Positions 22,609-33,929 of a stretch of 64,000 nt of DNA are shown piece by piece (positions within the stretch are counted from its first letter, which is position 1; each line of letters opens with the position of its first letter). The stretch lies in the sequence record NC_101842.1. One strand, written 5' to 3'. Made by a program: the position numbers and the translations under genes. A model generated the notes under the pieces. That model worked only from the letters and a program-made list of their open reading frames with translations. It had not been told where the DNA came from and did not search any database. The stretch comes from a phage.

Positions 22609-23220
22609 TACTTGAAAATTCCTGGCATATCAAGTATAAGGGGGATTTCTAAAATGGATTTCCTCCTTTTGATATTTCACCGGGCTGGATATTTTAAAAT
22701 TCTTAGAAAATCAGAAAATGGATCGAAAACTAAAATGGATTTTTCAGAGTAGGCGCGACAAGCTGAATAACTCATCCTATCGTTTGCACCATATTCCAGG
22801 CCACCATTATAGATTTCCCACACATGCTAACCTCCCTCTACTAGAACTTCCTCCACTTACCCTTGACCTTCTATGGTAACAATCTAACCGCTATCTTGAA
22901 GTTGCGGTGCAGCTTTCCAGGTACTCGATCTACTTTTCATTTCAGGGCTTGGATTTTCTGAAAATTTTTCTCGATAAATTTCTCAGTACTCGATCTGTTT
23001 TTCGTTTTCTGAATCGGATTTTCTGGAAATCGTTCCGGCTCTCAACCTGAAATTTTTGGGGACGAAATCGATTTTTCGTTTTCAGAAATGGATTTTTAAA
23101 ATTTCTATATGGGAATATTTTAGTGGATACTATTTTATAGTAAATTGTTACGGAGGGTAATTAGCGTGCTAATTAAATTTATTAAATGCGAGGAGTTCTC
23201 ATTTAGAATCTTGAATGATA
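22609..23220. repeat. non-coding repeat region: ~66-bp imperfect tandem duplication plus AAATGGAT motifs
   Basis: GTACTCGATCT at ~22921 and ~22987; GGATTTTCTGAAAAT / GGATTTTCTGGAAAT; AAATGGAT at ~22651, 22715, 22732, 23086; no ORFs. Confidence 0.6.
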
Positions 23221-23425
23221 ATCATTCTCGTTTGCAGAATAACGGGCAGGCCCGGTGATTGTCTCCCGGCCCCTGTTGCCCCGGCTTGTTATTATAGTAT
23301 CACACAGGACAAAGAAAGCAAGGATTTTTTTTGCATAAATTTTTAAATGATAATGATAACCGTTCTCATTTTATGCAGCGCTCATCCCTGGTGGTTGTCT
23401 CCCCCGTCACCGGTGCCTGCCGTCC
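23215..23425. repeat. two direct copies of a GC-rich element with GTCTCCC core
   Basis: GGCAGGCCCGGTGATTGTCTCCCGGCCCC (~23245) and GGTGGTTGTCTCCCCCGTCACCGGTGCCTGCCGT (~23390), each preceded by GATAATNATT...CTC. Confidence 0.5.
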
Positions 23426-23623
23426 TTTCGATAGGTATATTGTGCCACCTGTCGGGGCCGCTGTCAACACTTTTCAAAAAATTTTTCTAACCTGATGCGC
23501 TAACCGCTGCAACCTGGCAGGGCCAGCCTGGCAGGACCTAACTGACCAGGTGGGAGAGGGTGAAATCTTGCAAACCTGGTAGGCCCATGCTGTAGGGTAA
23601 ACAATTGAAGAGGAGGTACAAAA

Positions 23624-23656
23624 ATGAAAGGTAATGCTACTCACCTGGAAATGTAG
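23624..23656 (+). other. 10-codon mini-ORF with strong SD (possible leader peptide)
   Basis: GAAGAGGAGG, 7 nt, then ATG AAA GGT AAT GCT ACT CAC CTG GAA ATG TAG. Confidence 0.25.
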
Positions 23657-23756
23657 TGATTAATGATACAGAAGCGCGGGAACATAAAGAAGAGTACGAA
23701 AAAATGGTGGTTAACCTGGCGGGGGGCTCTATCATAAAAATAATTTAAAATAATCG

Positions 23757-23785
23757 TTGACAACAAGGTTAATCATGGTATTATT
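23757..23785 (+). promoter_or_regulatory. sigma70-like promoter
   Basis: TTGACA then TATTAT-like -10 with 16-17-nt spacing. Confidence 0.5.
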
Positions 23786-23834
23786 ACCCTACAAGGTGAA
23801 CAACACCGCACTAACCAGTAAAGAGGATAAATTT

Positions 23835-24032
23835 ATGAACGCATACGGGATCAAAGTACGTCGCAACACTCGCCAGGTGGTCACCGATCAAATGGTTTGC
23901 CAGGTGGACGTAACCATCAACAACGGGCAAGGCCTTTATAAATTCCGTCGCGGTCATAGCTATACCCTGCAACAGCTTAACCGTTGCGCCCTGACAAAAG
24001 GTCAGATCAACCACTGGTTTAATAAAAAATAA
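23835..24032 (+). CDS. small basic hypothetical protein
   Basis: ATG after AAGAGGATAAA RBS; track ORF 23757-24032 trimmed. Confidence 0.55.
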   Translation: MNAYGIKVRRNTRQVVTDQMVCQVDVTINNGQGLYKFRRGHSYTLQQLNRCALTKGQINHWFNKK

Positions 24033-24034
24033 TG

Positions 24035-24063
24035 TTGACATATGGTCTGACACAAAATACACT
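24035..24063 (+). promoter_or_regulatory. sigma70-like promoter
   Basis: TTGACA, 17-nt spacer, TACACT. Confidence 0.55.
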
Positions 24064-24095
24064 GAAATCGCAAAAGACACTAAGAGGATAAAATC

Positions 24096-24494
24096 ATGAA
24101 AACCACTACCTTTAATTTTGATAATGCGGACTTTTCTTTTTCTGATGTCAAGAACTGCCGCCGTGATCGTGGATTTTACAAGGCTTATAATCTGGTGGGC
24201 CTGGACGATGACAATAATTTGCACGAAGTAGCTGAGATCCGGTATTATGCCGCCGCCAGCGGGAACACTCACTACTGCGTGTTTTGGATTCACGACAACA
24301 AGAACAATAAGTACGGTTATACTGGCGGCAAGGCGAGCGGTCACGGTTACGATAAAGCTAACGCAGCACTTGAGAGCGCATTAAATGCTATGGGGATCAC
24401 TGCCGACGGCTGGATCTACGAAGAAGAGTTTTTGTCGGCACTTGCTGACCACCTGGGCTATAAAAAACACATTGTAACATGCGCCCACGAATAA
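24096..24494 (+). CDS. hypothetical protein
   Basis: AAGAGGATAAAATC RBS downstream of promoter. Confidence 0.65.
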   Translation: MKTTTFNFDNADFSFSDVKNCRRDRGFYKAYNLVGLDDDNNLHEVAEIRYYAAASGNTHYCVFWIHDNKNNKYGYTGGKASGHGYDKANAALESALNAMGITADGWIYEEEFLSALADHLGYKKHIVTCAHE

Positions 24495-24499
24495 AAATC

Positions 24500-24556
24500 A
24501 TTGACACGCTGCAAAATTTAAGTAAACTAGACACAAAAGGCGGGAATGTTTCCCGC
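24500..24556 (+). promoter_or_regulatory. sigma70-like promoter plus 5'-UTR GC hairpin
   Basis: TTGACA, 16 nt, TAAACT; then hairpin GGCGGGAATGTTTCCCGCC before the RBS. Confidence 0.5.
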
Positions 24557-24576
24557 CAGCACAAAGGAAAAAGATC

Positions 24577-24972
24577 ATGAATAAGAACGTACGCCGCATC
24601 ATGAACGAACTGGCAAACGATGAAAAAATTATTGATATGCATTTGGTCAACATTTGCCGCCGTTGTGTAACATATAACAACCGCGCCGCAAAAGCGCGTG
24701 AGATGAACGCAAAAGGCACCTTAAAGCCCTTTCAGGTGGTTGTAAAATCTATAACTAGCGCAGCAGGCCAGGCGCAGGACCACAACAACGAGAGCGCTAA
24801 TATTGATCCGTCTTACGTAATGAAACGGATCCGGACTTGCAAGAATAAAGAGCAGGTATATAACGTCATAGATTGGCTGGACTCCCTGGGCGATGTGGTT
24901 TACAATAGGTTTTCTGCAGCTATCGAGATCCAGCTTGACAGATTGGACGGGAAAGTGCTAAAAACTTATTGA
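24577..24972 (+). CDS. hypothetical protein
   Basis: AAAGGAAAAAG RBS. Confidence 0.65.
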   Translation: MNKNVRRIMNELANDEKIIDMHLVNICRRCVTYNNRAAKAREMNAKGTLKPFQVVVKSITSAAGQAQDHNNESANIDPSYVMKRIRTCKNKEQVYNVIDWLDSLGDVVYNRFSAAIEIQLDRLDGKVLKTY

Positions 24973-24973
24973 G

Positions 24974-25019
24974 TTTATTTTTAGATGGCCTTGACACCAG
25001 GGCCATCAATAAAGTAAAC
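24974..25019 (+). promoter_or_regulatory. repeated palindromic promoter element, copy 1
   Basis: TTTATTTTTAGATGGCC-TTGACACCAG-GGCCATCAATAAAGTAAAC; TTGACA sits in the loop of the GATGGCC/GGCCATC inverted repeat. Confidence 0.5.
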
Positions 25020-25052
25020 TAACCACAGTTGAGCGGAAAAGGAGGCTTAAAG

Positions 25053-25172
25053 ATGAGCACTACACGCCAGCACACAAAGGTAACCATCATCGTTTGCATC
25101 ATTGGGTACATCCTGGCGCAAATGTTGATGGGTAGCGCCAACGGTGTCGCAAAATTTTTCTTAAACTTTTAA
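25053..25172 (+). CDS. small hydrophobic peptide (39 aa)
   Basis: Not in ORF track; AAGGAGG RBS; MSTTRQHTKVTIIVCIIGYILAQMLMGSANGVAKFFLNF. Confidence 0.45.
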   Translation: MSTTRQHTKVTIIVCIIGYILAQMLMGSANGVAKFFLNF

Positions 25173-25225
25173 TTGACAAGCTAACTTAAATCGATATAAT
25201 AAGCACATAAACGGGAAAACTTCCC
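25173..25225 (+). promoter_or_regulatory. sigma70 consensus promoter plus 5'-UTR hairpin
   Basis: TTGACA, 16 nt, TATAAT; hairpin GGGAAAACTTCCC. Confidence 0.6.
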
Positions 25226-25251
25226 AGAACACACAAAAGGAGAAAAACACC

Positions 25252-25593
25252 ATGACTACTATGACCGCCTCAGAAAAAGCTATGCAGATCGCTGAACTGA
25301 AAAAACAGATCGCAGACCTTGAGAATAAGATCGATAACTTTGAAATCGACGAGGACAAGTACGACGAAAACTATGATGAATGGTTAGACGAGATCTACGG
25401 CGAAATTATGATCGGAAACATTTCTTTTCTTCCGTCGCGTATCCTCAAGGAGCTAGATCCTATCGCTTACCGCTGCGGATTTAGCGACTACATCGACAGC
25501 CTGGATATTGAGGACGATGAAGAATACCAGGAATTACAGACAGAGTTAGAAGAAGCAAAAGAAGAGCTTGCGGAGCTGGAAGAAAACGAGTAA
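25252..25593 (+). CDS. acidic coiled-coil hypothetical protein
   Basis: AAAAGGAGAAAA RBS; D/E-rich. Confidence 0.65.
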   Translation: MTTMTASEKAMQIAELKKQIADLENKIDNFEIDEDKYDENYDEWLDEIYGEIMIGNISFLPSRILKELDPIAYRCGFSDYIDSLDIEDDEEYQELQTELEEAKEELAELEENE

Positions 25594-25595
25594 GC

Positions 25596-25640
25596 TTATT
25601 TTTAGATGGCCTTGACACCAGGGCCATCAATAAAGTAAAC
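25596..25640 (+). promoter_or_regulatory. repeated palindromic promoter element, copy 2
   Basis: Near-identical to copy 1. Confidence 0.5.
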
Positions 25641-25682
25641 TTTATACTGTTAACACTGAACTAATGCATAGGAGTTAAAACC

Positions 25683-25928
25683 ATGGCAGCACTAATCACC
25701 AAATATTATGCCCCTACCAACACCAAAAGCGCCCGTATCATGGTAAAAGGCTTCGGACGTAAAAAGGTGTACACCTGGGATTATGCCTTAGACACGGAAG
25801 ACAACTACACCAACGCAATGACCGATTTTATTAATGAACTAAATAAGCAGATCTTGACAAGTTATAAAGTGACCGATATTGCTTATATAGGTGAAGGCGG
25901 GATCTGTTTTGTAGGCATTGTGAAATAG
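25683..25928 (+). CDS. hypothetical protein
   Basis: TAGGAGTTAAAACC RBS. Confidence 0.6.
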   Translation: MAALITKYYAPTNTKSARIMVKGFGRKKVYTWDYALDTEDNYTNAMTDFINELNKQILTSYKVTDIAYIGEGGICFVGIVK

Positions 25929-25976
25929 TTATTTTTTCGGTGGTCCTGGCTGCAGGGCCATCTATAAAGATAATTT
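25929..25976 (+). promoter_or_regulatory. degenerate fourth copy of the palindromic element
   Basis: TTATTTTTTCGGTGGTCC-TGGCTGCA-GGGCCATCTATAAAGATAATTTA. Confidence 0.35.
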
Positions 25977-26002
25977 ATCAACACCATGAAAGGAGAAAGT
26001 AC

Positions 26003-26356
26003 ATGATCAGCGGGGCTAGTTTTATTATTGGCGCTATTGCTACGGCTTTAATTGTAAACAAGATCCAATCTAAAAACGAAAAAGATAGCAACGCGCTCAC
26101 AGAATACCCATTTTGGGTATTCAACGACAACGAAGACTACATAATCAAGTACAAAGATGAGAGAGGCGACCAGGTAACACCGCGACCGATCCCAGCTTAC
26201 AAGATGCAGGAAACACTATACCGCCTAAAGGCCGGAGGCGCAAAGATCGTAGACTTTTGGGGATATGATTGCAAGGATCAGGAGGTCATAAAACGTCGTA
26301 TCCGGGCGATTCAGGCAAATATTGAAATTAGTAAAGGGGAAATTTATGAAAATTAA
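26003..26356 (+). CDS. membrane-anchored hypothetical protein
   Basis: AAAGGAGAAAG RBS; N-terminal helix MISGASFIIGAIATALIV; track ORF trimmed. Confidence 0.55.
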   Translation: MISGASFIIGAIATALIVNKIQSKNEKDSNALTEYPFWVFNDNEDYIIKYKDERGDQVTPRPIPAYKMQETLYRLKAGGAKIVDFWGYDCKDQEVIKRRIRAIQANIEISKGEIYEN

Positions 26357-26543
26357 TTTCGAAAAAATTGTAAAGCGCCCCCACGATTCCGAAGAGCTGC
26401 CGGAACGCCGCCAGCGTAACAATAAACTGAATAAACCGAAAAGGTTCGGGAAGATCTGGAGGAATCACTATGATCGCAAATTACCGGGCCTGCTTTTGGA
26501 ACGTGAACGACAGGCGGAACGATACCGCCACAAAGGCAAATAA
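26346..26543 (+). CDS. small Arg/Lys-rich basic protein
   Basis: ATG after AAAGGGGAAA; overlaps upstream stop. Confidence 0.5.
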   Translation: MKINFEKIVKRPHDSEELPERRQRNNKLNKPKRFGKIWRNHYDRKLPGLLLERERQAERYRHKGK

Positions 26544-26550
26544 CAACCAA

Positions 26551-26580
26551 CGCCCCGCCATTGTGCGGGGCTTTTTATTT
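26551..26580 (+). terminator. rho-independent terminator
   Basis: CCCCGC-CATTGT-GCGGGG then CTTTTTATTT. Confidence 0.65.
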
Positions 26581-26713
26581 CTATCCTACGAATAGCGCCC
26601 CTGGTTGGCCCCACAAACGCCACAAAAGCCCCTACCTATGCAATCCCCTTTCTTAGCCTGAAAACATCACCCAGGACCGTTTTATGGTGTTAAAAATATC
26701 TTTTATTTAAAGC

Positions 26714-26742
26714 TTGACACCTTGGAATCGCCTGGATATACT
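26714..26742 (+). promoter_or_regulatory. sigma70-like promoter
   Basis: TTGACA, 17 nt, TATACT. Confidence 0.5.
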
Positions 26743-26777
26743 AACCACATCAAAGCAAGAAGAAAGGAGTAAACGCC

Positions 26778-27038
26778 ATGCGTAAATTAAAAAATTTTGA
26801 TAAAGTCGATGTTGTCCTGAATAATTTTTACTACTGCAATAATAAGGCCGTTTGGTGGCGTGATAGTTCCACCGATAAAGTTAAAGCGCGCTTTCTCCAG
26901 GGGCACTGGCAAGGCCGCCCAGTGATTAAGATCCGGGGGCAATTGGTAGCGTTTAAAAATTGCCGCCGTGTTGATGACGTTGAAGAGATTCTAAACATTT
27001 TACGCCACAATAATTTAAAAAATAGTGTTGACAAGTAA
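26778..27038 (+). CDS. hypothetical protein
   Basis: AAAGGAG RBS. Confidence 0.6.
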   Translation: MRKLKNFDKVDVVLNNFYYCNNKAVWWRDSSTDKVKARFLQGHWQGRPVIKIRGQLVAFKNCRRVDDVEEILNILRHNNLKNSVDK

Positions 27039-27055
27039 GCCTCAATAAGTATACT
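27028..27055 (+). promoter_or_regulatory. sigma70-like promoter
   Basis: TTGACA, 16 nt, TATACT; followed by 5' hairpin GGCTGGAAAACTTCCCGCC. Confidence 0.5.
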
Positions 27056-27112
27056 TAAACACACAGGCTGGAAAACTTCCCGCCACTAACAAAGAAAATA
27101 GGAGAAAATATC

Positions 27113-27736
27113 ATGACCACCGTTAACATTACCGCAGGTTACAATTTATCTTTCGACGTGCTGACCGACGAACAAAAAGAAAAAGCCGTTGAAATGGTCC
27201 GCGAAAGAGAAGAACACAGCGGGGATAACTTTTTTGCAGAAAGTGTAATTGAATACTATAAAGAATATGTTTTTCCAGAGTATGGCCTTGAAGATACCGA
27301 AGTACATTGGTCAGGCTTTTGGTGCCAGGGTGACGGCGCGTCAATCAGTGCTGAAAACGTGGATTTAGAAAAATTTTTGCGTAAAGTAAAGGCCCTGACC
27401 AAGTTCCGATCAATTCGTCACTTGTTCGGCACAATGCACGATGGCGAGTTATCAGCCAGTGTTGAGCGTGATCCATATAGCCGCTATAGTCACGAAAACA
27501 CTGTAAGCGGATACATTGATACCACCTGGCTAGATCTGACCGCCAAACAAGAAAACAAAGTGGAAGACCTGGAAGAGCTGATCACCGAGACGGTACGGGA
27601 GCTATCCCGCAAGGTTTACGTAGACCTGGAGGAGGCCTATCTTGAACAGTTTACTACCGAAAACCTGATCGGCCTTATTGAGGCCAATGATTGGCGGTTT
27701 GATGTGGATGAATATGGCGAGATGACTTTTTCATAA
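27113..27736 (+). CDS. acidic hypothetical protein
   Basis: TAGGAGAAAA RBS; 207 aa; no confident family. Confidence 0.65.
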   Translation: MTTVNITAGYNLSFDVLTDEQKEKAVEMVREREEHSGDNFFAESVIEYYKEYVFPEYGLEDTEVHWSGFWCQGDGASISAENVDLEKFLRKVKALTKFRSIRHLFGTMHDGELSASVERDPYSRYSHENTVSGYIDTTWLDLTAKQENKVEDLEELITETVRELSRKVYVDLEEAYLEQFTTENLIGLIEANDWRFDVDEYGEMTFS

Positions 27737-27744
27737 ATAAAGTG

Positions 27745-27801
27745 TTGCAATAACCTAAAAACCTGCTATATTAAAACTCAAGGGGGCAAGACGTTTGCCC
27801 C
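27745..27801 (+). promoter_or_regulatory. sigma70-like promoter plus 5'-UTR hairpin
   Basis: TTGCAA, 16 nt, TATATT; hairpin GGGGGCAAGACGTTTGCCCC. Confidence 0.45.
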
Positions 27802-27825
27802 ACACAAAACAAAGAGGAAAACATT

Positions 27826-28206
27826 ATGAAAAACACTACCAAGGCTATTGACACCGTTATGTTTAACCTGGTTACATTCCGTGAAGATATGAAAGATCTT
27901 CCACGTGAAACAGTGTGCGATCACATTGAAAACTATCGCAAACTAATCAAAGAGTTGCCCCTAAAACGTGACCAGTATGCGGCTAACGCTATGCTCAACG
28001 CCATGATCAAAAAGATGATCCAGTGTGATTTAACCCTGGCCTATGACTATGCGGGTGGTCGTTTTGCAGTATACAATCAGCCCGTGCCCGGTATGGGCAC
28101 CACCGAAGAATTGCACGCGCTCAATCTAAAACAAGACGTATGGGATAACATGCCCCGCGTGGTGGTGTGGGCAGAAAGCGGAAAGATTTACGGCGATAAT
28201 TTTTAA
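27826..28206 (+). CDS. hypothetical protein
   Basis: AAAGAGGAAAA RBS. Confidence 0.65.
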   Translation: MKNTTKAIDTVMFNLVTFREDMKDLPRETVCDHIENYRKLIKELPLKRDQYAANAMLNAMIKKMIQCDLTLAYDYAGGRFAVYNQPVPGMGTTEELHALNLKQDVWDNMPRVVVWAESGKIYGDNF

Positions 28207-28270
28207 TCAGGTAACAGGCGGCATATTTGCCGCCTTATTATTAAACAGAACTGCAAAAGAGGTACATAGA

Positions 28271-28642
28271 ATGGAATTTATTATTTTGGCTGTAGTAGTT
28301 GCCTTGTTCAACGCCTGGATCGCTGGCAAGATGGGTAGATCCTCCTTTTTATGGTTTATTATATCTATTTTCCTGGGGGTGGTTGCAACTATTGTACTTG
28401 TTATCCTTGCAATTGTTGACAAGGGGAATAATAGAAAGGGTAAAGTATTTTCAGACCTGTACGACGCTCAAACGTTTGTCAACGCCTATTATAGTGATCT
28501 TCCAGTCTCCCTACGCTGCAGCCTGGCACAACAAGTTTTCGATGAGGCTAAAACCAGAGATCAAGCCCATGAGATATGTTTAACTGAGGCGGATCGCCTA
28601 TTTGAGAGGAATAGAAAATATGTGGGCCAACCGTTTAAATAA
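28271..28642 (+). CDS. membrane protein (two predicted TM helices)
   Basis: AAGAGG RBS; hydrophobic stretches IILAVVVALFNAWIAG and FLWFIISIFLGVVATIVLVILAIV. Confidence 0.6.
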   Translation: MEFIILAVVVALFNAWIAGKMGRSSFLWFIISIFLGVVATIVLVILAIVDKGNNRKGKVFSDLYDAQTFVNAYYSDLPVSLRCSLAQQVFDEAKTRDQAHEICLTEADRLFERNRKYVGQPFK

Positions 28643-28841
28643 TGCCACGTTAATTAATCCCTTTAGTGAAGATTTGAAGCCAGCCGCCTGGCGTGATGGA
28701 TTCAATAACGAACGCTTTATTTTCAAGCCTGATCTTGAGGAATTTTATAACAATGGATCGAACAACGACAGAGATAATTTTTCTTGTGGTGTGCGTAGTG
28801 ATGGTACTCCTGGTGGCCATTGTAAACCACGTCACTACTAA
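28620..28841 (+). CDS. hypothetical protein
   Basis: ATG after GAGAGGA; overlaps upstream gene by ~23 nt in another frame. Confidence 0.4.
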   Translation: MWANRLNNATLINPFSEDLKPAAWRDGFNNERFIFKPDLEEFYNNGSNNDRDNFSCGVRSDGTPGGHCKPRHY

Positions 28842-28862
28842 CAGGGGGGAAAGGGGGAGACG

Positions 28863-28982
28863 ATGACACCCAAGGATAAGCCCCGCACCGATAAGGCGCG
28901 CCGTGTTATGGTATGGCTTGAGATCATCGCCCTTGAAATATTGTTAGGGGTAGGGATGTACTTTATCGCTGTAAGTAACTAA
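28863..28982 (+). CDS. small membrane peptide (39 aa)
   Basis: Not in ORF track; GGGGGAG RBS; MTPKDKPRTDKARRVMVWLEIIALEILLGVGMYFIAVSN. Confidence 0.45.
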   Translation: MTPKDKPRTDKARRVMVWLEIIALEILLGVGMYFIAVSN

Positions 28983-28986
28983 GAAC

Positions 28987-29015
28987 GGCCCCCCGATCAT
29001 GGGGGCCTATCTTTT
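28987..29015 (+). terminator. rho-independent terminator
   Basis: GGCCCCCC-GATCAT-GGGGGCC then TATCTTTT. Confidence 0.6.
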
Positions 29016-29043: not shown

Positions 29044-29096
29044 TTGCAATCCGGTCCGGAATGTGGATAATAACAATCAACGGGGAGCTAATCCCC
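29044..29096 (+). promoter_or_regulatory. sigma70-like promoter plus 5'-UTR hairpin
   Basis: TTGCAA, 17 nt, ATAATA; hairpin GGGGAGCTAATCCCC. Confidence 0.45.
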
Positions 29097-29127
29097 ACCA
29101 CCACAAAAACCAGAAAGGAGAAACAAA

Positions 29128-29328
29128 ATGAGCAACAATATCCGCGTTATTAACTTCAAAAAAGAAGAAAAAATTGCCGTGCTGATTGACGGTCAAGAAA
29201 TCTTCAAGGGCGACTATGAAGATCATCAAACGGCGATTAGTATCACTCGCGTGATTGGTTACCATAATTTTTACCCCCAAGGCGCTGAGGCAGCGGTTAA
29301 ACGAATCAAAGAGATTGTAGGCCTGTAA
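29128..29328 (+). CDS. hypothetical protein
   Basis: AAAGGAGAAA RBS. Confidence 0.6.
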   Translation: MSNNIRVINFKKEEKIAVLIDGQEIFKGDYEDHQTAISITRVIGYHNFYPQGAEAAVKRIKEIVGL

Positions 29329-29330
29329 AA

Positions 29331-29376
29331 TTTATTTTTAGATGGCCTTGACTCCAGGGCCATCAATAAAGTAAAT
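29331..29376 (+). promoter_or_regulatory. repeated palindromic promoter element, copy 3
   Basis: TTTATTTTTAGATGGCC-TTGACTCCAG-GGCCATCAATAAAGTAAAT. Confidence 0.5.
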
Positions 29377-29422
29377 TTAAACCCTGTTAAATATACCACG
29401 CAGTTAACAAGGAGTGATAGAC

Positions 29423-29722
29423 ATGTTTATCCAGGCTAATAATCTTTATTTCTTTGATGGTCAGATCGTAGACGGTGTGGAAGTGGAGATCACCGGGTGC
29501 CCTGGCGGTCAGGCTATGACTTTTCGGAATAATGCCTTTGATGATTCTCATATCGTTATGAGAATGGAAGTTACGAAGCTGGACGACAAGAAAACACTTA
29601 TTGACTATTCTGTGAAAGATCATCCAGACTACCGCATGATCCATGGCGATTTGTGCATTGTTGACCGTGACAAGGTGGGCGGCATTGTGATCGCTATTGT
29701 GAACGATGTTTTCTCAAACTAA
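29423..29722 (+). CDS. hypothetical protein
   Basis: AAGGAGTGATAGAC RBS; track ORF trimmed. Confidence 0.6.
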   Translation: MFIQANNLYFFDGQIVDGVEVEITGCPGGQAMTFRNNAFDDSHIVMRMEVTKLDDKKTLIDYSVKDHPDYRMIHGDLCIVDRDKVGGIVIAIVNDVFSN

Positions 29723-29739
29723 TTTCAGCAGGTGATTTT

Positions 29740-30090
29740 ATGAAAGTCAAACTATATTACCTTAATGAGCTTAACCCCCTTGCCCAGGTCCGCGCCCTAG
29801 CTAATACCTTGATTTGTGAGAAATCTGCATATTGTGTTGAGCTTAACGCCATGCGTGAACGTCTCAAAGGGGGTTACTTTGACATCCATGCTGCAATCAA
29901 CGGCCTGAATATGGAATTTATACGCTTACGTAACAGCCGCCGGAATCTGGCAAGAATGGAACAAGATCCGGCCCACCTTCGTAAGCTGGTTATTGAAAAT
30001 CATCTGATGTTTAATGCCGAGGGTGATTATTACCATTTTCACCGCAAACGCTGGTACCGTGGCGGCAATACAGGCAAGAATGCAAAATAA
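29740..30090 (+). CDS. hypothetical protein
   Basis: ORF in array; basic C-terminus. Confidence 0.55.
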   Translation: MKVKLYYLNELNPLAQVRALANTLICEKSAYCVELNAMRERLKGGYFDIHAAINGLNMEFIRLRNSRRNLARMEQDPAHLRKLVIENHLMFNAEGDYYHFHRKRWYRGGNTGKNAK

Positions 30091-30128
30091 GGCCCCAGGC
30101 AGGGCCTGCAGCGATATAATCACATAAA

Positions 30129-30160
30129 GGCTATGCGGTTGCATGGCCTTTATTATTTTA
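30129..30160 (+). terminator. rho-independent terminator
   Basis: GGCTATGC-GGTT-GCATGGCC then TTTATTATTTTA. Confidence 0.55.
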
Positions 30161-30291
30161 GCGTTACAGCGGCCCCAAGGCGCTTAAAAAATTTTTAAAG
30201 AAGTACTTGCATCAAGTCCTACAATATGGATAATAGGACGTGTCAGGGGGGCGGCCCCCAATCATTAACCGGATAGATAGGAGTTAAAATC

Positions 30292-30576
30292 ATGGCTATT
30301 GTCACCGTTGGCGATGTAGTGGAAATGGAAGCAAAATACTTAAAAGCGGGTATGCATATCCTACGGAATGATCAAGAATTGTTATTAACGATGGTAGACT
30401 ATAATCCCGGCCAGGATTATCCAAGCATCGACTACTTTTTTGAGTATGTTGATGAAGAATTGAAAGAGGATGAGGCTTATCAGGGTGAATTCTGCAATTT
30501 CTTTTGCCCTGATGAGGTTGTAAAAGTTATCTATCAACCTGGAGTACCTTTCCCGCTGCACGCTATCAATAAATAA
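30292..30576 (+). CDS. hypothetical protein
   Basis: TAGGAGTTAAAATC RBS; upstream hairpin GGGGGCGGCCCCC. Confidence 0.6.
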   Translation: MAIVTVGDVVEMEAKYLKAGMHILRNDQELLLTMVDYNPGQDYPSIDYFFEYVDEELKEDEAYQGEFCNFFCPDEVVKVIYQPGVPFPLHAINK

Positions 30577-30630
30577 ACCTGGCGGGGCCGAAAAGGCCCC
30601 AATTATGAAAATAAAGAGAGGTAAATCATC

Positions 30631-30864
30631 ATGATGGAACAAATTAAACGCGCTGAGGCTATTAATGGCAATGTGATCTATTTTGTCAGCAAAAACGAAA
30701 AAGGCGTACCATATGCGGCGGTAATAGTACAACCTGACGGCGATTATTGGTTTACTGTATACGGATCTTATTCTTTCGGGCGTCCGGTTCATGATAGAAT
30801 TTTGAAAGTAGCAAATCCGACCGGGAAAAATATCACAGCAGAAAAATTTTTTGAAAATAGTTGA
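30631..30864 (+). CDS. hypothetical protein
   Basis: AGAGAGG RBS. Confidence 0.55.
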   Translation: MMEQIKRAEAINGNVIYFVSKNEKGVPYAAVIVQPDGDYWFTVYGSYSFGRPVHDRILKVANPTGKNITAEKFFENS

Positions 30865-30916
30865 CATGACCATATAAGACTGTAATATATAAATCAAAAG
30901 GGGGGCAACAAGCCCC
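30861..30916 (+). promoter_or_regulatory. sigma70-like promoter plus 5'-UTR hairpin
   Basis: TTGACA, 16 nt, TAATAT; hairpin GGGGGGCAACAAGCCCC. Confidence 0.55.
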
Positions 30917-30941
30917 ACCAACCACAAAGAGGATAAAAATC

Positions 30942-31121
30942 ATGGCTATTATTGCAAAGACTGAGATCGTAGGCTTAGATTCTATTCTCCTCGCATATGA
31001 GGAAGCTATAGAAATGTATGTGGTTTCCTATGGTGAATATATCCGTGAATATAAATCTATTGATCTAGCTTTTGAATGTTATATTCGCCAGGTCAATAAA
31101 GCATATGATGATTATCGTTAA
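30942..31121 (+). CDS. small hypothetical protein (59 aa)
   Basis: Not in ORF track; AAAGAGGATAAAAATC RBS behind promoter and hairpin. Confidence 0.5.
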   Translation: MAIIAKTEIVGLDSILLAYEEAIEMYVVSYGEYIREYKSIDLAFECYIRQVNKAYDDYR

Positions 31122-31203
31122 AATAGTTTGACAATAGTCAACAATCTGGTAAAGTGTACTACATAGCGCGGGAATACTTCCCGCCATTAATGAGGGTAAT
31201 TTA

Positions 31204-31341
31204 ATGAAAACTTTCAACGCAACAGCCTCGACAATTGGTTATATTATTACAGTACAAGCCGTGGATCTGGTAGCAGCAGCAAACAAGATTAAAAAGATGA
31301 TTCCGCCAGGTAGTGAATTTTCCGTTTGGGAAGTAAAATAA
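31204..31341 (+). CDS. small hypothetical protein (45 aa)
   Basis: Not in ORF track; promoter-hairpin-RBS cassette nearly duplicated at the next gene. Confidence 0.45.
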   Translation: MKTFNATASTIGYIITVQAVDLVAAANKIKKMIPPGSEFSVWEVK

Positions 31342-31424
31342 ATCTTGACAATAGTTTATTACTTGATAGGCTGTATTTCGTAGGGCGGGGCAATAAGGCA
31401 ACGCCCATTAATGAGGGTAGAATC

Positions 31425-31529
31425 ATGTTAGAGAAAATTTTCACGGTTGTAGTAGTTGGCCTGGCATTATCGGTTGGAGTGGTTGCAACTATGGCTAACA
31501 TGATCCTATCTTCCCACGGTATCGGTTAA
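31425..31529 (+). CDS. small hydrophobic peptide (34 aa)
   Basis: MLEKIFTVVVVGLALSVGVVATMANMILSSHGIG behind a duplicated cassette (TTGACAATAGT...hairpin...AATGAGGGTA). Confidence 0.45.
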   Translation: MLEKIFTVVVVGLALSVGVVATMANMILSSHGIG

Positions 31530-31530
31530 G

Positions 31531-31755
31531 GTGAATCAAATGATCACGAATAAGACAGGTAAAACAGAATTTTTACGCGGCTTGCAAATAGGTAAGCCTG
31601 AGATCTGGCATTGCACTAAAACACCACGTGACGAAATGAAAGACTTCACCGCCACGCTGCAACGGGTAAAGATATCCATCGCGCAGAAAAAGGCCTTGAT
31701 AGTGGTGGAAGGTGAGATCCCTCAAACCGTTGTTATAGTTGAGCGTACAGCATAG
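31531..31755 (+). CDS. hypothetical protein
   Basis: GTG start directly after upstream stop. Confidence 0.5.
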   Translation: MNQMITNKTGKTEFLRGLQIGKPEIWHCTKTPRDEMKDFTATLQRVKISIAQKKALIVVEGEIPQTVVIVERTA

Positions 31756-31846
31756 TTTAATTTATAGCGATACCTGAAAATTAACCAATAAATCATAAAC
31801 AGGCGGTTACCGCCGCCTTAAACGTAGCAGAAAGAGGATAGACACA

Positions 31847-32131
31847 ATGAAAAAGATGATCGCAGTAGTTGCCCTGGTTGTTGGACTTAATGCGCCTGTA
31901 ATGGCTAAAGAGCTGGCAAAAGAGGTTGATCTAACGGATATCCATGCCGTCAATCAAATCGGGGTTACTTATCGCTTATGCCTTGCCGCTAAAACTTTTA
32001 ATGACGGTACAACAGAGTACTACGGATTCGAGGGTATCCGGTGCGGTGAGCTTGCTCGCGACCTTAAGGAAGATCCAGACCTGGAGGATCTACCCATAAC
32101 CGTGAACGGTAAAGCTTACGTTAACCGTTAA
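31847..32131 (+). CDS. secreted/periplasmic small protein
   Basis: AAAGAGGATAGAC RBS; signal peptide MKKMIAVVALVVGLNAPVMA. Confidence 0.65.
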   Translation: MKKMIAVVALVVGLNAPVMAKELAKEVDLTDIHAVNQIGVTYRLCLAAKTFNDGTTEYYGFEGIRCGELARDLKEDPDLEDLPITVNGKAYVNR

Positions 32132-32133
32132 CC

Positions 32134-32268
32134 GTGAAAAAGATAATCATTACCTTGGGGATTGTGGCGGGATCGCTGGCGCTCTTTCCCCTTATGGTTA
32201 GATATGTGCTGATCAGTATTGTCCTGGTGGTCAGTGATCTACTAGAAACGGTTGGCACCTTGTTTTAA
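32134..32268 (+). CDS. possible small membrane peptide (44 aa, GTG start)
   Basis: Hydrophobic ORF; no clear RBS. Confidence 0.3.
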   Translation: MKKIIITLGIVAGSLALFPLMVRYVLISIVLVVSDLLETVGTLF

Positions 32269-32280
32269 AGAGCGATAAAA

Positions 32281-32472
32281 ATGAATGTTGAACAAGTTAG
32301 AAAGGTATTGGCGGTACTGCGTTATCATAATCATAGAAAGGTCATAGACGATCCTGATTATGTTGATTCAAGTCTGGAAGAGGATACACTACAAGCCATA
32401 AGTAACATGCAAGAATTGCTAAAGCGCATGACAGAGAAAAACCGACCGGACTACATAGGCGAAAAAATATAA
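32281..32472 (+). CDS. hypothetical protein
   Basis: ORF followed by terminator. Confidence 0.55.
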   Translation: MNVEQVRKVLAVLRYHNHRKVIDDPDYVDSSLEEDTLQAISNMQELLKRMTEKNRPDYIGEKI

Positions 32473-32487
32473 TCCTTATTAACTAGA

Positions 32488-32518
32488 AAACAGGGCTTGC
32501 AATGGTCCTGTTTTTTGT
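32488..32518 (+). terminator. rho-independent terminator
   Basis: AAACAGG-loop-CCTGTTT then TTTTGTTA. Confidence 0.5.
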
Positions 32519-32530
32519 TATACTTATTAC

Positions 32531-32578
32531 ACGGCAGGCACCTGGCGACGGGGGGAGACAATCACCGGGCCTGCCTGT
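32531..32578. repeat. inverted copy of the GC-rich GTCTCCC element seen at 23.2-23.4 kb
   Basis: GGGAGACAATCACCGGGCCTGCC is the reverse complement of GGCAGGCCCGGTGATTGTCTCCC at ~23245; the left half matches the second 23.4-kb copy. Confidence 0.6.
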
Positions 32579-32601
32579 CATATAAGAACTATAAAAACCG
32601 T

Positions 32602-32660
32602 TGACATCTGCCAGGTGGTGGGGTAACATTTATCTTGAAGGGGCAAAAGTGCCCACACAA
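32602..32660 (+). promoter_or_regulatory. sigma70-like promoter plus 5'-UTR hairpin
   Basis: TTGACA ... TAACAT; hairpin GGGCAAAAGTGCCC. Confidence 0.45.
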
Positions 32661-32683
32661 CAACCAGAAGAGAGGAAAACATT

Positions 32684-32956
32684 ATGTCAAGCTGGATTAA
32701 TCAAGAAGTCGAATCACGTTTTAATGCTATTTGGGATCTCATCGAAAAAGAGGACGGAACATCAAGCCCTTATCTCAATAATCTTGAATTCCATTTCGTG
32801 GAAGCGATGAACGCAGAACATGATCACGAAGGTGGTGCGGATGAGTTCGCTAAATGGTATGGCTTCAACAATGCCAACGAAATGATCGAGGCGGTTGTAC
32901 TCCAGGCTGAGGAAGATTATCAATTAAAAACGCTTGAATTCTGCCGCCGTAAGTAA
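32684..32956 (+). CDS. acidic hypothetical protein
   Basis: AGAGAGGAAAAC RBS. Confidence 0.6.
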   Translation: MSSWINQEVESRFNAIWDLIEKEDGTSSPYLNNLEFHFVEAMNAEHDHEGGADEFAKWYGFNNANEMIEAVVLQAEEDYQLKTLEFCRRK

Positions 32957-33018
32957 TAAGATAATGACACGGGCCAAAAGGCCCACTAAACAAAAACCAC
33001 ATAAAGAGGAAAAACATC

Positions 33019-33282
33019 ATGAAACGTCTTGACCAGCTCAAACTAGTTCAATATATGGCTTATCGTGTTCTGGAAGTCCAGAAAGGTAGCAAAAAAGAGG
33101 TTTGCGAGAAAGCTTATAAGATCTTTACCCGCAAAAAAGATGACTGGATGCTACGCCAGACCAAAAAGGCTGACATCTTGGGGTACCTGGAAGAAGAGAT
33201 CCGACTTGAAGAACAAGAAGAGATCCGCCGTAGTGAGGCAGATTATCAGGCAGCTTGGGAAAACTGGATGAGCAACAAATAA
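33019..33282 (+). CDS. hypothetical protein
   Basis: AAAGAGGAAAAAC RBS after hairpin GGGCCAAAAGGCCC. Confidence 0.6.
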   Translation: MKRLDQLKLVQYMAYRVLEVQKGSKKEVCEKAYKIFTRKKDDWMLRQTKKADILGYLEEEIRLEEQEEIRRSEADYQAAWENWMSNK

Positions 33283-33301
33283 TACAACAAGATGAACGGT
33301 C

Positions 33302-33327
33302 AGGGGCTTAAAGCCCCTTTCTTTTTG
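33302..33327 (+). terminator. rho-independent terminator (end of + strand island)
   Basis: AGGGGC-TTAAA-GCCCCT then TTCTTTTTG. Confidence 0.7.
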
Positions 33328-33929
33328 TCTTCTCTTTTCCTACCATAAACGGCCCTACCTGGCAAGTGGAATAATTGACGAGCCATCAATCCCACACACT
33401 GTACAAATATACATGGAAAATAACTATTGCATAATTTTTCATTGTGTGGTAGCAAGGCCATTTTTACCCGTTTTACCTTCCAAAATTGCACGTAATGCCG
33501 CTATTGCACAAATTTTAACCTGATGCACATCTCCAATATCTTGTCAACAACTAAAAATCTTTATAAGTCATGCACTTACATAACCACAAAAGCGTGTTCT
33601 ACGTGAAAAATCGAGTATAACTATAGCCGCCAGATCTCAGAATTTACGTACGCTCACCAGTCTATAGCCTGCTAAGTATTTATTCCAACCATAGAATAAC
33701 GGAATAGTCAATACCTGCATAAAATAATTATTCGTGTAAACTGCATAACATAAATCGGCTAGGATGTCAACATTTTTCGTAAACAGCTCGAAATTATAAC
33801 GGTGAGTTATAATAAACAGAGAAATCTTTAGTCGTCTAATGTTTACTGTACATTACTATACTGACTGGAATCATTAGATGACTAAGAGAAAGATAAGAAA
33901 TCATTAACAATGCAATTGTTTTATTCGTA

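Follow-up and report, generated by a model that had tools for sequence, protein, structure and literature searches.

A promoter-dense block of small-gene cassettes with conserved GC-rich hairpins beside the genome end of an rV5-like coliphage

Why should a phage supply one small gene after another with its own promoter, GC-rich hairpin and ribosome-binding site? The question is raised by an island at 23.8–33.3 kb of the window, that is, the whole 64,000-nt stretch analysed (NC_101842.1), which is a Vequintavirus (rV5-like) coliphage genome with 98.4% identity to phage HdK5. The island adjoins the physical genome end and has the replication-gene arm upstream. That end is a direct terminal repeat of 458 bp (34329–34786, terminus at 34786). 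The terminal repeats measure 458/459 bp, and positions 1–458 of the HdK5 record align to 34329–34786; in five records (HdK5, EdH4, Gotham, YN3, and ECP2309) the repeat segment stands at record positions 1–458 and matches two places, and in Pr121LW and ECP2303 it occurs as a single copy at one record end. An AT-rich non-coding spacer (33330–34328) with perfect 20-nt direct repeats and 18-nt inverted repeats precedes the terminal repeat, and a left non-coding control region (22880–23756) lies between the replication-gene arm and the island.

Twenty-eight small plus-strand genes with Shine–Dalgarno sites are found between 23835 and 33282, in good agreement with the approximately 27 of a preliminary description. 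All 28 proteins belong to PHROG families of unknown function; the sole Pfam match is to T7 gp1.1, and for the largest protein, whose fold is predicted with confidence, a solved structural relative was not found. The mixture of acidic, basic, secreted and membrane products noticed earlier is also present: four acidic proteins have net charges of −12 to −27, and basic, membrane and signal-peptide proteins occur. Host takeover or anti-defence is a plausible function for these products.

The island contains 17 sigma70-like promoters, mostly TTGACA-16/17-TAnnnT with A/T-rich tracts upstream, together with six intrinsic terminators and 13–14 GC hairpins; eight of these promoters and four terminators have been predicted independently in rV5. 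In 10–11 cassettes, the hairpin starts 10–13 nt past the −10 box (at 24539, 25213, 27066, 27783, 29082, 30247, 30902, 31168, 31383, and 32641, and weakly at 23795), corresponding to about +4 of the predicted transcript if the usual 7 nt separate the −10 box and the start site. Each cassette hairpin is followed by a CA-rich spacer and then by an AAGAGGA or AAGGAG site. When the 32 nt after the −10 box were folded, the median energy was −8.4 kcal/mol at the island promoters versus −1.9 at the 15 promoters compared from the rest of the window (Mann–Whitney p = 0.002), and folds reaching −7 kcal/mol were found at 9/17 and 2/15 promoters, respectively (Fisher p = 0.022). Against dinucleotide shuffles, z-scores are near or under −3 in 7–9 cassettes. 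The cassette is real, but the earlier view that most of the genes possess it does not hold, since it is complete for only 10–11 of the 28. Seven genes are operonic and have neither a promoter nor a hairpin of their own, the two strong promoters at 24035 and 26714 have no hairpin, hairpins 30584 and 31801 have no good promoter, and that at 32971 has only a weak one.

Along the plus strand, the series begins with a cassette at 23757–24032, in which the promoter (23757–23784) is followed by a weak hairpin (23795–23807) and a gene for a basic 65-aa protein (23835–24032). The next unit (24035–24494) has a promoter (24035–24063) and the 132-aa rV5 P195 gene (24096–24494) without a hairpin. Full cassettes are located at 24501–24972 (promoter 24501–24528, hairpin 24539–24557 with z = −4.4, rV5 P194 gene 24577–24972) and at 25173–25593 (consensus promoter 25173–25200, hairpin 25213–25225, gene 25252–25593 for a 113-aa protein of charge −27). 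After a second promoter without hairpin (unit 26714–27038, promoter 26714–26742, rV5 P186 gene 26778–27038), the cassette at 27028–27736 (promoter 27028–27055, hairpin 27066–27084, gene 27113–27736, 207 aa, charge −25) has its −35 box within the end of the upstream gene, and its hairpin, with one mismatch in the window, is perfect in seven relatives. Then come a full cassette with a terminator at 27745–28235 (promoter 27745–27772, hairpin 27783–27801, gene 27826–28206, terminator 28216–28235), a three-gene operon without cassette promoters at 28271–29007 (genes 28271–28642, 28620–28841, and 28863–28982, terminator 28987–29007), and full cassettes at 29044–29328 (promoter 29044–29071, hairpin 29082–29096, gene 29128–29328) and 30207–30576 (promoter 30207–30234, hairpin 30247–30259, gene 30292–30576). 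A hairpin without a good promoter (30584–30600) precedes the gene 30631–30864 in the unit 30584–30864, and in the full cassette 30861–31121 (promoter 30861–30888, hairpin 30902–30916, rV5 P174 gene 30942–31121) the −35 box overlaps the stop codon of the upstream gene.

The following two cassettes, 31128–31341 (promoter 31128–31155, hairpin 31168–31184, gene 31204–31341) and 31345–31755 (promoter 31345–31372, hairpin 31383–31406, genes 31425–31529 and 31540–31755), had been taken for an almost verbatim duplication; they are indeed paralogous, but with 77% identity, and the shared blocks are only TTGACAATAGT and CCATTAATGAGGGTA. Downstream, a hairpin without promoter (31801–31818) heads the unit 31801–32472 with genes 31847–32131 (signal peptide), 32134–32268 (membrane), and 32281–32472. 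A full cassette at 32601–32956 (promoter 32601–32629, hairpin 32641–32654, rV5 P168 gene 32684–32956) and a last unit at 32934–33318 (weak promoter 32934–32962, hairpin 32971–32984, gene 33019–33282) complete the series, and a plus-strand terminator at 33302–33318 ends the island.

Another arrangement is provided by D1, a 49-nt repeat whose hairpin encloses the −35 box, with promoters at four copies (24984, 25605, 25939, and 29341). The −35 box is spanned by its inverted repeat, GATGGCC-N9-GGGCCATC, which has an invariant stem and a variable loop. Copy 1 (24972–25172; hairpin 24984–25007, −35 at 24991) precedes a gene for a 39-aa membrane protein (25053–25172). Copies 2 and 3 (25593–26571; hairpins 25605–25628 and 25939–25962) serve genes 25683–25928, 26003–26356, and 26346–26543 (T7 gp1.1-like), and this segment is closed by an intrinsic terminator at 26552–26571. 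Copy 4 (29329–30153; hairpin 29341–29364) is followed by genes 29423–29722 and 29740–30090 and a terminator at 30124–30153. All of these are on the plus strand.

Comparison with other phages revealed that the structure of the hairpins is conserved rather than their sequence. Hairpins persist in all seven relatives despite sequence change, which is limited to loops, stem length or structure-preserving positions. The 29 hairpins compared, from five phages, comprise 27 different arm pairs; folded with their own arms they average −12.9 kcal/mol, compared with −8.9 for swapped-arm chimeras. In the equivalent block of Mt1B1_P17 (Phapecoctavirus), promoters are found for 23 of 35 genes and hairpins in 17 of those 23; the first paired base lies 10–11 nt past the −10 box in 10 of the 17, and in the others pairing starts earlier where the fold adds flanking pairs. 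The cassette is more stereotyped in this Phapecoctavirus than in the window. As had been anticipated, gene content varies across a conserved architecture, because only 8 of the 28 island proteins recur in the Phapecoctavirus block, in shuffled order; two of the eight are 97–98% identical to Mt1B1_P17, and one of them is 100% identical in ESCO13. Within Vequintavirus, at least 20 of the 28 genes are present in all seven relatives examined, and therefore the description of a fast-evolving accessory region applies mainly between subfamilies. Within the genus there are 5–6 indel hot spots, the main one being the paralogous pair 31128–31755. Junctions are located at cassette 31128, at a composite terminator/promoter described below, and at terminator 33302, where four relatives have a 545-nt insertion flanked by a duplicated terminator; others are inside genes (31474) or at gene ends, so that only some are in cassettes.

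Probably, the island is an immediate-early, promoter-dense accessory block of composite cassettes with protective or insulating 5′ hairpins and recombining modules. From its position 1 kb inside one virion-DNA end, transcription would run toward that end: unmodified host RNA polymerase may fire the approximately 17 promoters upon DNA entry, and the nested transcripts would be cut into units by the six intrinsic terminators. In a cassette, an A/T-rich, UP-like tract contains the stop codon of the preceding gene. A sigma70 promoter close to consensus comes next, then a GC stem-loop about 10 nt past the −10 box, an unstructured CA-rich leader, and finally a strong Shine–Dalgarno sequence and the ATG. 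Lying at the 5′ end or close to it, the hairpin may shield the message from 5′-end-dependent decay (RppH/RNase E) and keep the leader and ribosome site unpaired whatever sequence is upstream, and the outcome would be high, context-independent expression of each small gene. Since the cassettes are repeated sequence, they may also be homology patches, and recombination in them could swap, duplicate or delete gene-plus-cassette modules. Two or three hairpins without a promoter speak against 5′ protection; being internal to transcripts, they would fit a processing, 3′-end or attenuator role better. The two strong promoters without hairpin also count against this reading.

Stem-loops at the 5′ terminus, as in the ompA 5′ UTR, are reportedly mRNA stabilisers, a finding said to rest on work by Emory, Bouvet and Belasco in 1992 and on later RppH/RNase E work. 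Like the island cassettes, the ompA type has a stable hairpin a few nucleotides from the 5′ end, an unstructured leader and a ribosome site, whereas in the island more than 10 adjacent genes bear the device one after another and the 5′ tail of 3–6 nt is predicted only; an unpaired tail of this length is said to be at the edge of the protection observed for ompA.

Among known systems, the island cassette comes closest to the PeSL cassette and is of the same, already described kind: PeSLs are the promoter-early stem-loops of the T4-like phages phi1/RB49, PST, and nt-1 (Arbiol et al. 2010, PMC2839356; Comeau et al. 2014, PMC4122927). Both combine an A/T-rich tract that holds the stop of the gene before, a sigma70 promoter of consensus type, a stem-loop with a G-run and a C-run, and the SD/ATG of a small ORFan. 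In both, the cassettes cluster in a plastic region and coincide with junctions of the indels or replacements that distinguish related phages, for which recombination of cassette-borne modules has been proposed in T4-like phages (PMC2839356; PMC4122927). In some PeSL variants the stem-loop covers the −35 box, as it does in D1 and in the composite terminator below, and in others it follows the −10 box. The lineages are different, the island phages being Vequintavirinae and Stephanstirmvirinae. Furthermore, in phi1/RB49 the stem most commonly lies between the two promoter boxes or on the −10 box, whereas in the dominant class of the island it follows the −10 box at a constant 10–13 nt, within the transcript and without a U tract.

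Blocks of small genes by the genome terminus are also found in the host-takeover module of the Bacillus phage SPO1 and the class I region of T7. These regions and that of T5 resemble the island in placing at the terminus numerous small genes whose functions are unknown or directed at the host, with strong host-type promoters and ribosome sites. Around the T5 pre-early region lie non-coding repeats, palindromes and inverted elements whose conservation exceeds that of the genes they enclose (Davison 2020, bioRxiv 10.1101/866236), and the island is likewise flanked. However, the terminal repeat is 458 bp here, not 10–13 kb, and thus the island is not itself repeated; homologues of A1/A2, gp44, and Ocr and a DnaA-box cluster were not found here. 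Lambdoid morons are single accessory genes with their own promoter and sometimes a terminator. They resemble the island in this, but are prophage-expressed, usually single insertions without a shared flanking repeat. Morons have been contrasted with PeSLs (PMC2839356).

The original reading of PeSLs was as transcription attenuators or terminators, and in a reporter, where this role was measured, one from phi1/RB49 caused termination (PMC2839356). It is conceivable, though we consider it unlikely, that the island hairpins are attenuators or terminators that damp read-through from the many promoters upstream or stop antisense transcription rather than 5′ protectors. The HdK5 annotators labelled two of them, 24539–24557 and 30902–30916, as terminators, T-rich runs follow several hairpins on the minus strand with terminator-scan matches at 24557, 27801, 30916, 25226, and 31818, and the promoterless hairpins 30584 and 31801 suit this role. 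On the sense strand, however, A/C-rich sequence follows the cassette hairpins and none has a T tract, against six canonical terminators in the same island, and a terminator at +4 to +22 would hit the transcript of its own promoter. Nor is minus-strand T-richness conserved, as Mt1B1 cassettes have CACGTA/CACATA ahead of the stem, and minus-strand promoters are few inside the island.

Many hairpins belong to a GGCGG...GAAU(A/G)GU...CCGCC sequence family, which could reflect protein recognition rather than a generic structural role. That the hairpins are specific RNA or DNA-cruciform binding sites for a phage-encoded protein, such as a translational repressor, an early-message shut-off nuclease or a cassette-moving recombination factor, is rather improbable. 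The idea was raised by the PeSL authors as well (PMC2839356); GGGCGG(C)..GAAU(A/G)GU..CCGCC recurs in 4–5 window hairpins and in the majority of the 17 from Mt1B1, and the D1 inverted repeat, with its invariant stem around the −35 box, is operator-like. More than half of the window hairpins, however, have unrelated stems and loops and therefore no common recognition motif, paralogy or gene conversion between the repeated cassettes would likewise produce shared sequence, and family searches found no candidate RNA-binding protein among the island proteins.

Apart from the cassettes, a 23-nt core, GGCAGGCCCGGTGATTGTCTCCC, is found exactly at 23245–23267 (+) and inverted at 32553–32575 (−). None of 100 shuffles had such a pair, which lengthens to 29 nt at 93% identity, and a third, diverged copy is at 23388–23403. 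In copy A (23239–23321, minus strand), a TTGCTT-19-TATAAT promoter (23291–23321) is followed by the conserved motif GGGAGACAATCACCGGGCCTGCC with the core 23245–23267. In copy B (23388–23488, minus strand), a TTGACA-17-CACAAT promoter (23439–23467), preceded by an UP-element whose tract reaches 23488, is followed by GGGAGACAACCACCAG (23388–23403). Copy C (32484–32581, plus strand) is a composite terminator/promoter: the loop of a terminator hairpin (32484–32517) holds the −35 TTGCAA, the promoter (32497–32524) has an extended −10, and 8 nt on, a 43-nt hairpin (32533–32575) bears GGGAGACAATCACC. This composite is an indel junction in nimi, isim, and D#. A conserved sigma70 promoter stands about 30 nt upstream of every copy, and the core is kept at syntenic positions in other genera. 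The core is a conserved promoter-proximal motif in three copies and not a mobile-element bracket; of the earlier proposal that it brackets the island, the exact inverted pair stands and the bracketing does not, the right-hand copy being about 750 nt inside the island, ahead of the last two genes. A discrete mobile or invertible segment bounded by these repeats is very hard to credit: the exact copies are 9.3 kb apart and the same inverted pair occurs 7.7–10.6 kb apart in Phapecoctavirus genomes, but, besides the third copy, the two genes beyond copy C and the promoter near each core, protein family searches found no recombinase in the island or its vicinity, all seven relatives are colinear across both copies, A/B and C match the window in strand and order in at least eight records, there is no visible target-site duplication, and no inversion or excision between the copies occurs among the relatives examined.

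The left control region, in which no SD-led ORF was found, harbors three 65–74-nt direct repeats (22911–23096) and three palindromes in addition to core copies A and B, and its layout is kept in PVP-SE1, Mt1B1_P17, and CR3. The palindromes (23185–23203, 23214–23232, and 23352–23370) are Fur-box-like, of the family AATGAkAAyNrTTCTCATT, which gives 12 strand-matches at six sites versus 0.62 expected. The family is confined to 23185–23370 in this region and to 34625–34777 in the terminal repeat (34625–34643, 34643–34661, 34743–34757, and 34759–34777), and palindromes of the kind found beside the cores also mark the genome terminus.

The small-gene block on the + strand at 23.8-33.3 kb, referred to here as the island, contains 28 genes for proteins of 34-207 aa, each with a Shine-Dalgarno (SD) site. 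Among them, 17 sigma70-like promoters were found, 12 of which match at least 10 of the 12 consensus positions. UP-like tracts are common to several of these promoters, and the upstream stop codon falls inside the -35 box or immediately ahead of it at 24035, 24501, 25173, 27028, 30861, 31128, and 31345 (cassettes are named by promoter start). In 10-11 cassettes, a GC hairpin starts 10-13 nt 3′ of the -10 box, and each such hairpin is followed by a CA-rich spacer and then by a ribosome-binding site, AAGAGGA or AAGGAG. Hairpins of another class belong to D1, a 49-nt repeat found in the island only, in four copies (hairpins at 24984, 25605, 25939, and 29341): its GATGGCC...GGGCCATC hairpin encloses the -35 box. 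In a third arrangement, the loop of the terminator at 32484-32517 is the -35 box of the following promoter, that of core copy C (see below). The preliminary description had assigned promoter, hairpin, and ribosome-binding site to most of the genes; the cassette is real, but its full form is present in about 40% of them, and the cassettes at 31128 and 31345, regarded there as almost verbatim duplicates, are 77% identical.

Promoters and hairpins are associated more closely than chance would allow. For the 32 nt that follow the -10 box, the median folding energy is -8.4 kcal/mol at island promoters versus -1.9 kcal/mol (p = 0.002) at 15 promoters elsewhere in the window that likewise precede an SD site and a start codon. 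A value of -7 kcal/mol is reached by 9/17 island promoters versus 2/15 of the others (p = 0.022), and the z-score against shuffled sequences is near or below -3 in 7-9 cassettes. Canonical intrinsic terminators, with hairpin and U tract, are located at six sites (26552, 28216, 28987, 30124, 32484, and 33302), while the sense-strand U tract is absent directly after the stems of the cassette hairpins. Eight of these promoters and four of these terminators were predicted earlier in Table S4 of the rV5 paper, which makes no mention of hairpins downstream of promoters (PMC3606486). A search against Rfam 15 gave a sole, sub-threshold match at 27758-27828 (36.8 bits vs. a gathering score of 94.4), due to chance. 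In the record of phage HdK5, two cassette hairpins are labeled “transcription terminators” (L001 4549-4567 and 10922-10936 in its own numbering, 24539-24557 and 30902-30916 in the window). Given their position 10-13 nt past a -10 box and the A/C-rich sequence that comes next, these are probably 5′-leader hairpins. Annotation would be corrected for at least these two “terminators” and also for several ORFs annotated across the non-coding boundary region of the island, which are probably not genes.

Judged from its sequence, the closest described thing to this cassette is the promoter-early stem-loop (PeSL), a repeated cassette of the T4-like phages phi1/RB49, PST, and nt-1, and all sequence-level features of the PeSL are present. 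A PeSL combines an A/T-rich tract, which holds the upstream stop codon, with a sigma70 consensus promoter, a stem-loop, and an ORFan's SD and ATG; its GGGG...CCCC stem-loop occupies any of five positions, and PeSLs, which cluster where the genome is hyperplastic, have been linked to modular shuffling (PMC2839356, PMC4122927). Likewise, the island promoters are strong, sigma70-consensus promoters with an A/T-rich tract ahead of the -35 box and the upstream stop codon in it, and the 3′ end of the motif is the SD and start codon of a small ORFan. The stems are found at several positions as well: 10-11 after the -10 box, four enclosing the -35 box (D1), and one terminator with the -35 box in its loop (C). 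Furthermore, the motif family is repeated and concentrated in a plastic region, with 17 stereotyped copies in the Phapecoctavirus Mt1B1_P17. The main difference from PeSLs concerns the dominant island class, whose stem forms part of the transcript, at a fixed distance, and lacks a following U tract. No report of PeSLs outside the T4-like phages, and no Vequintavirus transcriptome or description of 5′ hairpins, was found in the searchable literature. The island displays a real, conserved, and tidy PeSL-like architecture in a phage group for which it had no earlier description.

The hairpins are conserved: every cassette hairpin is kept in 7/7 Vequintavirus relatives. Changes among the relatives affect loops or the length of G/C runs, or preserve pairing, such as those at 27783 in WalterGehring, at 24539 in isim, and in several alternative stems at 30247; a mismatch in the window's hairpin 27066 is absent from all relatives. 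The architecture is also found in ESCO13, CR3, and PVP-SE1, which belong to other genera. In Mt1B1_P17, the first 12.5 kb of the record harbor 35 small genes, 23 with promoters and 17 with hairpins; the first paired base is 10-11 nt after the -10 box in 10/17 hairpin cassettes, and a near-stereotyped unit, TTGACA-16-TAAnnT-gtatcacatAGGGCGGC..AATGGT..GCCGCC-..AGAGAGA..ATG, can be recognized. A MAFFT alignment of the hairpins for formal pair counting was not structurally consistent, and an arm-swap control was used in its place. The 29 hairpins compared, taken from five phages, comprise 27 distinct arm pairs, and native hairpins nevertheless fold better than swapped-arm chimeras (mean -12.9 vs. 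-8.9 kcal/mol), indicating that structure is what is maintained.

What would the stems do? A stabilizer hairpin is one whose stem starts about 0-4 unpaired nt from the primary 5′ end. With a transcription start 7 nt 3′ of the -10 box, the 10-13-nt gap of the island cassettes would leave a 5′ tail of 3-6 nt, and, like in 5′-terminal stabilizer hairpins, structure rather than sequence is kept. The overall cassette model is rather probable; within it, the stems would have a protective or insulating role at the 5′ end. This role is favored, with less assurance than the model as a whole, because the stem is in the transcript at a fixed distance without a U tract, alongside six real terminators. Less probably, the stems are transcription attenuators or, with slightly lower probability still, sites of specific protein recognition. 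For E. coli, the island offers more than 10 natural expression cassettes that are compact, strong, and apparently insulated.

The preliminary description also took the island for a fast-evolving accessory region. This holds mainly between subfamilies: only 8/28 island proteins have homologues in the Mt1B1_P17 block, in shuffled order. Within the genus Vequintavirus, the majority of island genes is shared, with exceptions at indel hot spots. At cassette 31128/31345, one paralogue is deleted or another gene is in its place; at the C terminator/promoter, there is a 346-nt gene insertion or a 1.3-kb replacement; at terminator 33302, a 545-nt gene is flanked by the duplicated terminator; and indels are also found at 29715-30080 and 32127-32268. 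Among the seven relatives, junctions are located in motifs, namely cassette 31128 (31134, 31147, and 31175), the C terminator/promoter (32481-32513), and terminator 33302-33319, and at other places (31474, 29715-30080, and 32127-32268); the coincidence of indel junctions with cassette motifs is suggestive. The proteins encoded at 31204-31341 (45 aa) and 31425-31529 (34 aa) are 97-98% identical in Mt1B1_P17, and the former is 100% identical in ESCO13. Since the remaining shared proteins are 67-86% identical to their Mt1B1_P17 homologues, recent exchange of these two between subfamilies is suggested. Both near-identical proteins coincide with the main indel hot spot. The idea formed on PeSLs, that cassettes both express and shuffle accessory genes, may be extended from T4-like phages, the only ones for which it had been described, to rV5-like phages in two subfamilies. 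This occurrence suggests that large virulent phages organize their plastic early regions by a general design.

All 28 island proteins fall into PHROG families of unknown function. The sole Pfam match is Phage_1_1 (T7 gene 1.1 protein, E = 1e-10), by a basic protein of 65 aa (26346-26543). By charge, four products are strongly acidic (net charge -12 to -27) and four basic; hydrophobic segments occur in six, and a signal peptide in one. AlphaFold2 modeled the 207-aa acidic protein with confidence (pLDDT 87.6), and no solved structural relative was found for it. Judging from their position and timing, these proteins might reasonably be guessed to serve host takeover or anti-defence.

By Megablast, the window is from a Vequintavirus (rV5-like myovirus), and phage HdK5 shows 98.4% identity across 100% of the query; the region is matched by 259 related records, 67 of them nearly full-length. 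Upstream of the island, 1-22.9 kb on the + strand is the replication arm according to the HdK5 annotation, with genes for a helicase-primase subunit, methylase, primase, DnaB-like helicase, DNA polymerase I, and a macro-domain protein. On the 3′ side of the island, 2.3 kb are gene-free, and then converging genes on the - strand follow. Vequintaviruses have defined ends with terminal repeats of 458/459 bp (Korf 2019, Dias 2020; PMC6563267, PMC7471380). Window 34786-34329 aligns to positions 1-458 of the HdK5 record; five independent records carry the same 458-bp segment at position 1-458, matching it at two places, and two further records have one copy at the record end. Because of this mapping to record starts and ends, 34329-34786 is the direct terminal repeat of virion DNA; with its terminus at 34786, the window extends across the physical end of the genome. 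A distance of 1.0 kb separates this repeat from the final terminator of the island, and island transcription runs toward the terminus. The intervening non-coding kilobase (33330-34328) is AT-rich and contains a perfect 20-nt direct repeat, ATGCAAACGAATGGCATGGC, at 33944 and 34175 and a perfect 18-nt inverted repeat at 33977 and 34111.

The 23-nt core is indeed exact at both positions previously noted, 23245-23267 (copy A, - strand) and 32553-32575 (copy C, in the + strand promoter element 32484-32581). As a bracket of two elements it does not hold, since a third, diverged copy (B, - strand) exists at 23388-23403 and all relatives are colinear. The aligned copies represent one element type: in every copy and every genus, the GGGAGACAAyCACC strand is accompanied by a sigma70 promoter, which is TTGCAA-16-TGtTATACT for C, an UP-element with TTGACA-17-CACAAT for B, TTGCTT-19-TATAAT for A, TTGACT-17-TATTCT and TATCCT in CR3 and FKP3, TTGCTT-16-TATTCT in Mt1B1, and TTGATC-16-TATTAT in PVP-SE1. 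The core starts 29-32 nt after the -10 box in most copies, the exceptions being A (25 nt) and B (38 nt). The conserved motif extends over ~35 nt, GGGAGACAAwCACCGrrCCTGCCyGyyATTC, and its conservation at the nucleotide level is found in unannotated intergenic DNA of Phapecoctavirus, Justusliebigvirus, Mydovirus, Seunavirus, Certrevirus, and one Aeromonas phage. Copies A and B are directed leftward, off the island, at an array of 65-74-nt repeats, and C is directed rightward, with the last two island genes coming after it; the inverted A...C layout, 7.7-10.6 kb apart, is also present in Phapecoctavirus. A search of 5,426 E. coli genomes gave no counterpart to the core, so that a reading as host mimic fails, and a scan of IMG/VR with a degenerate 16-mer gave mostly chance matches.

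The same boundary carries a family of Fur-box-like palindromes, AATGAkAAyNrTTCTCATT, which form only two clusters in the 64-kb window: three sites at 23185-23370, beside copies A and B, and three to four sites at 34625-34777, inside the terminal repeat and 10-160 bp from the terminus. In total, 12 strand-matches were observed in the window versus 0.62 expected, and all palindromes fit TGAkAAyNrTTmTCA. The E. coli Fur box consensus is a 19-bp 9-1-9/7-1-7 inverted repeat, GATAATGATAATCATTATC (TGATAATnATTATCA); counted by hand, it is matched at 16/19 positions at 23350-23368 and 15/19 at 23212-23230. Host Fur, the terminase, or some other protein may bind these palindromes. The same pairing is found in Mt1B1_P17, with palindromes at record nt 57-75 and beside an A-like core at 13305 (13.3 kb), and a perfect palindrome adjoins the core in PVP-SE1. 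Sites of one family thus lie on both sides of a segment made up of the island and 1.5 kb of non-coding DNA: at the terminus and 11.4 kb (8%) from it. Palindromes apart, zero similarity was found between the left and right non-coding regions. Both the conservation of the core across genera and the palindromes common to the terminus and the inner border of the island were unexpected by-products.

It is conceivable, though improbable, that the island forms a well-defined “terminal early domain”, bordered by cis-acting sites that two subfamilies have conserved. These sites, namely palindromes 10-160 bp from the terminus and 11-13 kb inside, the latter beside the promoter-proximal GGGAGACAAnCACCGrnCCTGCC, might be bound by Fur of the host or by a protein of the phage, and the binding might gate stepwise genome entry, as in the first-step transfer of T5; shut-off of the early block, or replication priming by G-rich transcripts toward the repeat arrays, would be alternatives. 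The first-step-transfer region of T5 comprises the terminal ~8% of the genome, pre-early genes, a non-coding repeat/palindrome border, a long terminal repeat, A1/A2, and a DnaA-box cluster, and conserved non-coding repeat regions frame its poorly conserved pre-early genes (bioRxiv 10.1101/866236). Similarly, the island border is 11.4 kb (8%) from the terminus, with a conserved non-coding boundary. Nonetheless, the island is not a region of the T5 type: unlike in T5, the terminal repeat is 458 bp, no A1/A2 homologues are found among island proteins, and DnaA boxes, clustered in the T5 iss region, are not enriched. In any case, the island is placed 1 kb from the packaged genome end, and its boundary sites (palindromes and core) outlast the genes, the core being more strongly conserved than the genes flanking it; these sites offer concrete targets for how these therapeutic-candidate phages start infection.

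Other readings of the boundary fail. The core is a linear sequence motif rather than a structured RNA, because the flanking arms differ among copies, only copy C forms a long hairpin, and RNAalifold gave zero consensus pairs for 12 diverse copies. A Fur-regulated antisense sRNA is out: antisense promoters are poor and broken by a ~35-nt insertion in CR3 and FKP3, while the sense promoter is good and conserved in every genus, although the antisense fold of C is slightly better (-27.3 vs. -25.2 kcal/mol). A micro-ORF across core A or B (MIIILVCRITGRPG...) is rejected, with a stop at codon 7 in Mt1B1_P17, differing A and B frames, and no SD. The island itself is not a long terminal repeat like those of T5 or SPO1, since the 458/459-bp repeats map to 34329-34786; that idea had started from two records beginning beside palindrome clusters. 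A mobile, invertible, or transposon-like element is dismissed, given three core copies (one internal), no recombinase domain among island proteins, and no inversion or loss of the A-C segment in the relatives compared.

Several minor observations were also made, mostly in the boundary region. A 92-aa ORF across A and B (23215-23490), annotated in HdK5 and other records and split in two here, is probably not a gene, because it lacks a ribosome site and its frame is not maintained from copy to copy or from genus to genus. Position 1 of the phiWec189 record (LC739538) corresponds to window 23371, exactly at the edge of palindrome 23352-23370 and far from the terminal repeat where other records begin; the assembly could have broken at the palindrome here, or the DNA could have a second site of cutting or nicking. 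The ribosome site at 28853-28861 of the gene for a 39-aa membrane peptide (28863-28982) is GGGGGAGAC, a 9-mer shared with the G-rich part of the core. An antisense core transcript could in principle pair with it, or the match may be a coincidence. Finally, three direct repeats of 65-74 nt with CTCGATC/TCGAT motifs and T-rich runs are located at 22911-23096, just 3′ of the replication arm, where promoters A and B aim at them. Comparable repeats are present in PVP-SE1 (L002, ~2380-2450), and those of the window are possibly iterons or an origin.
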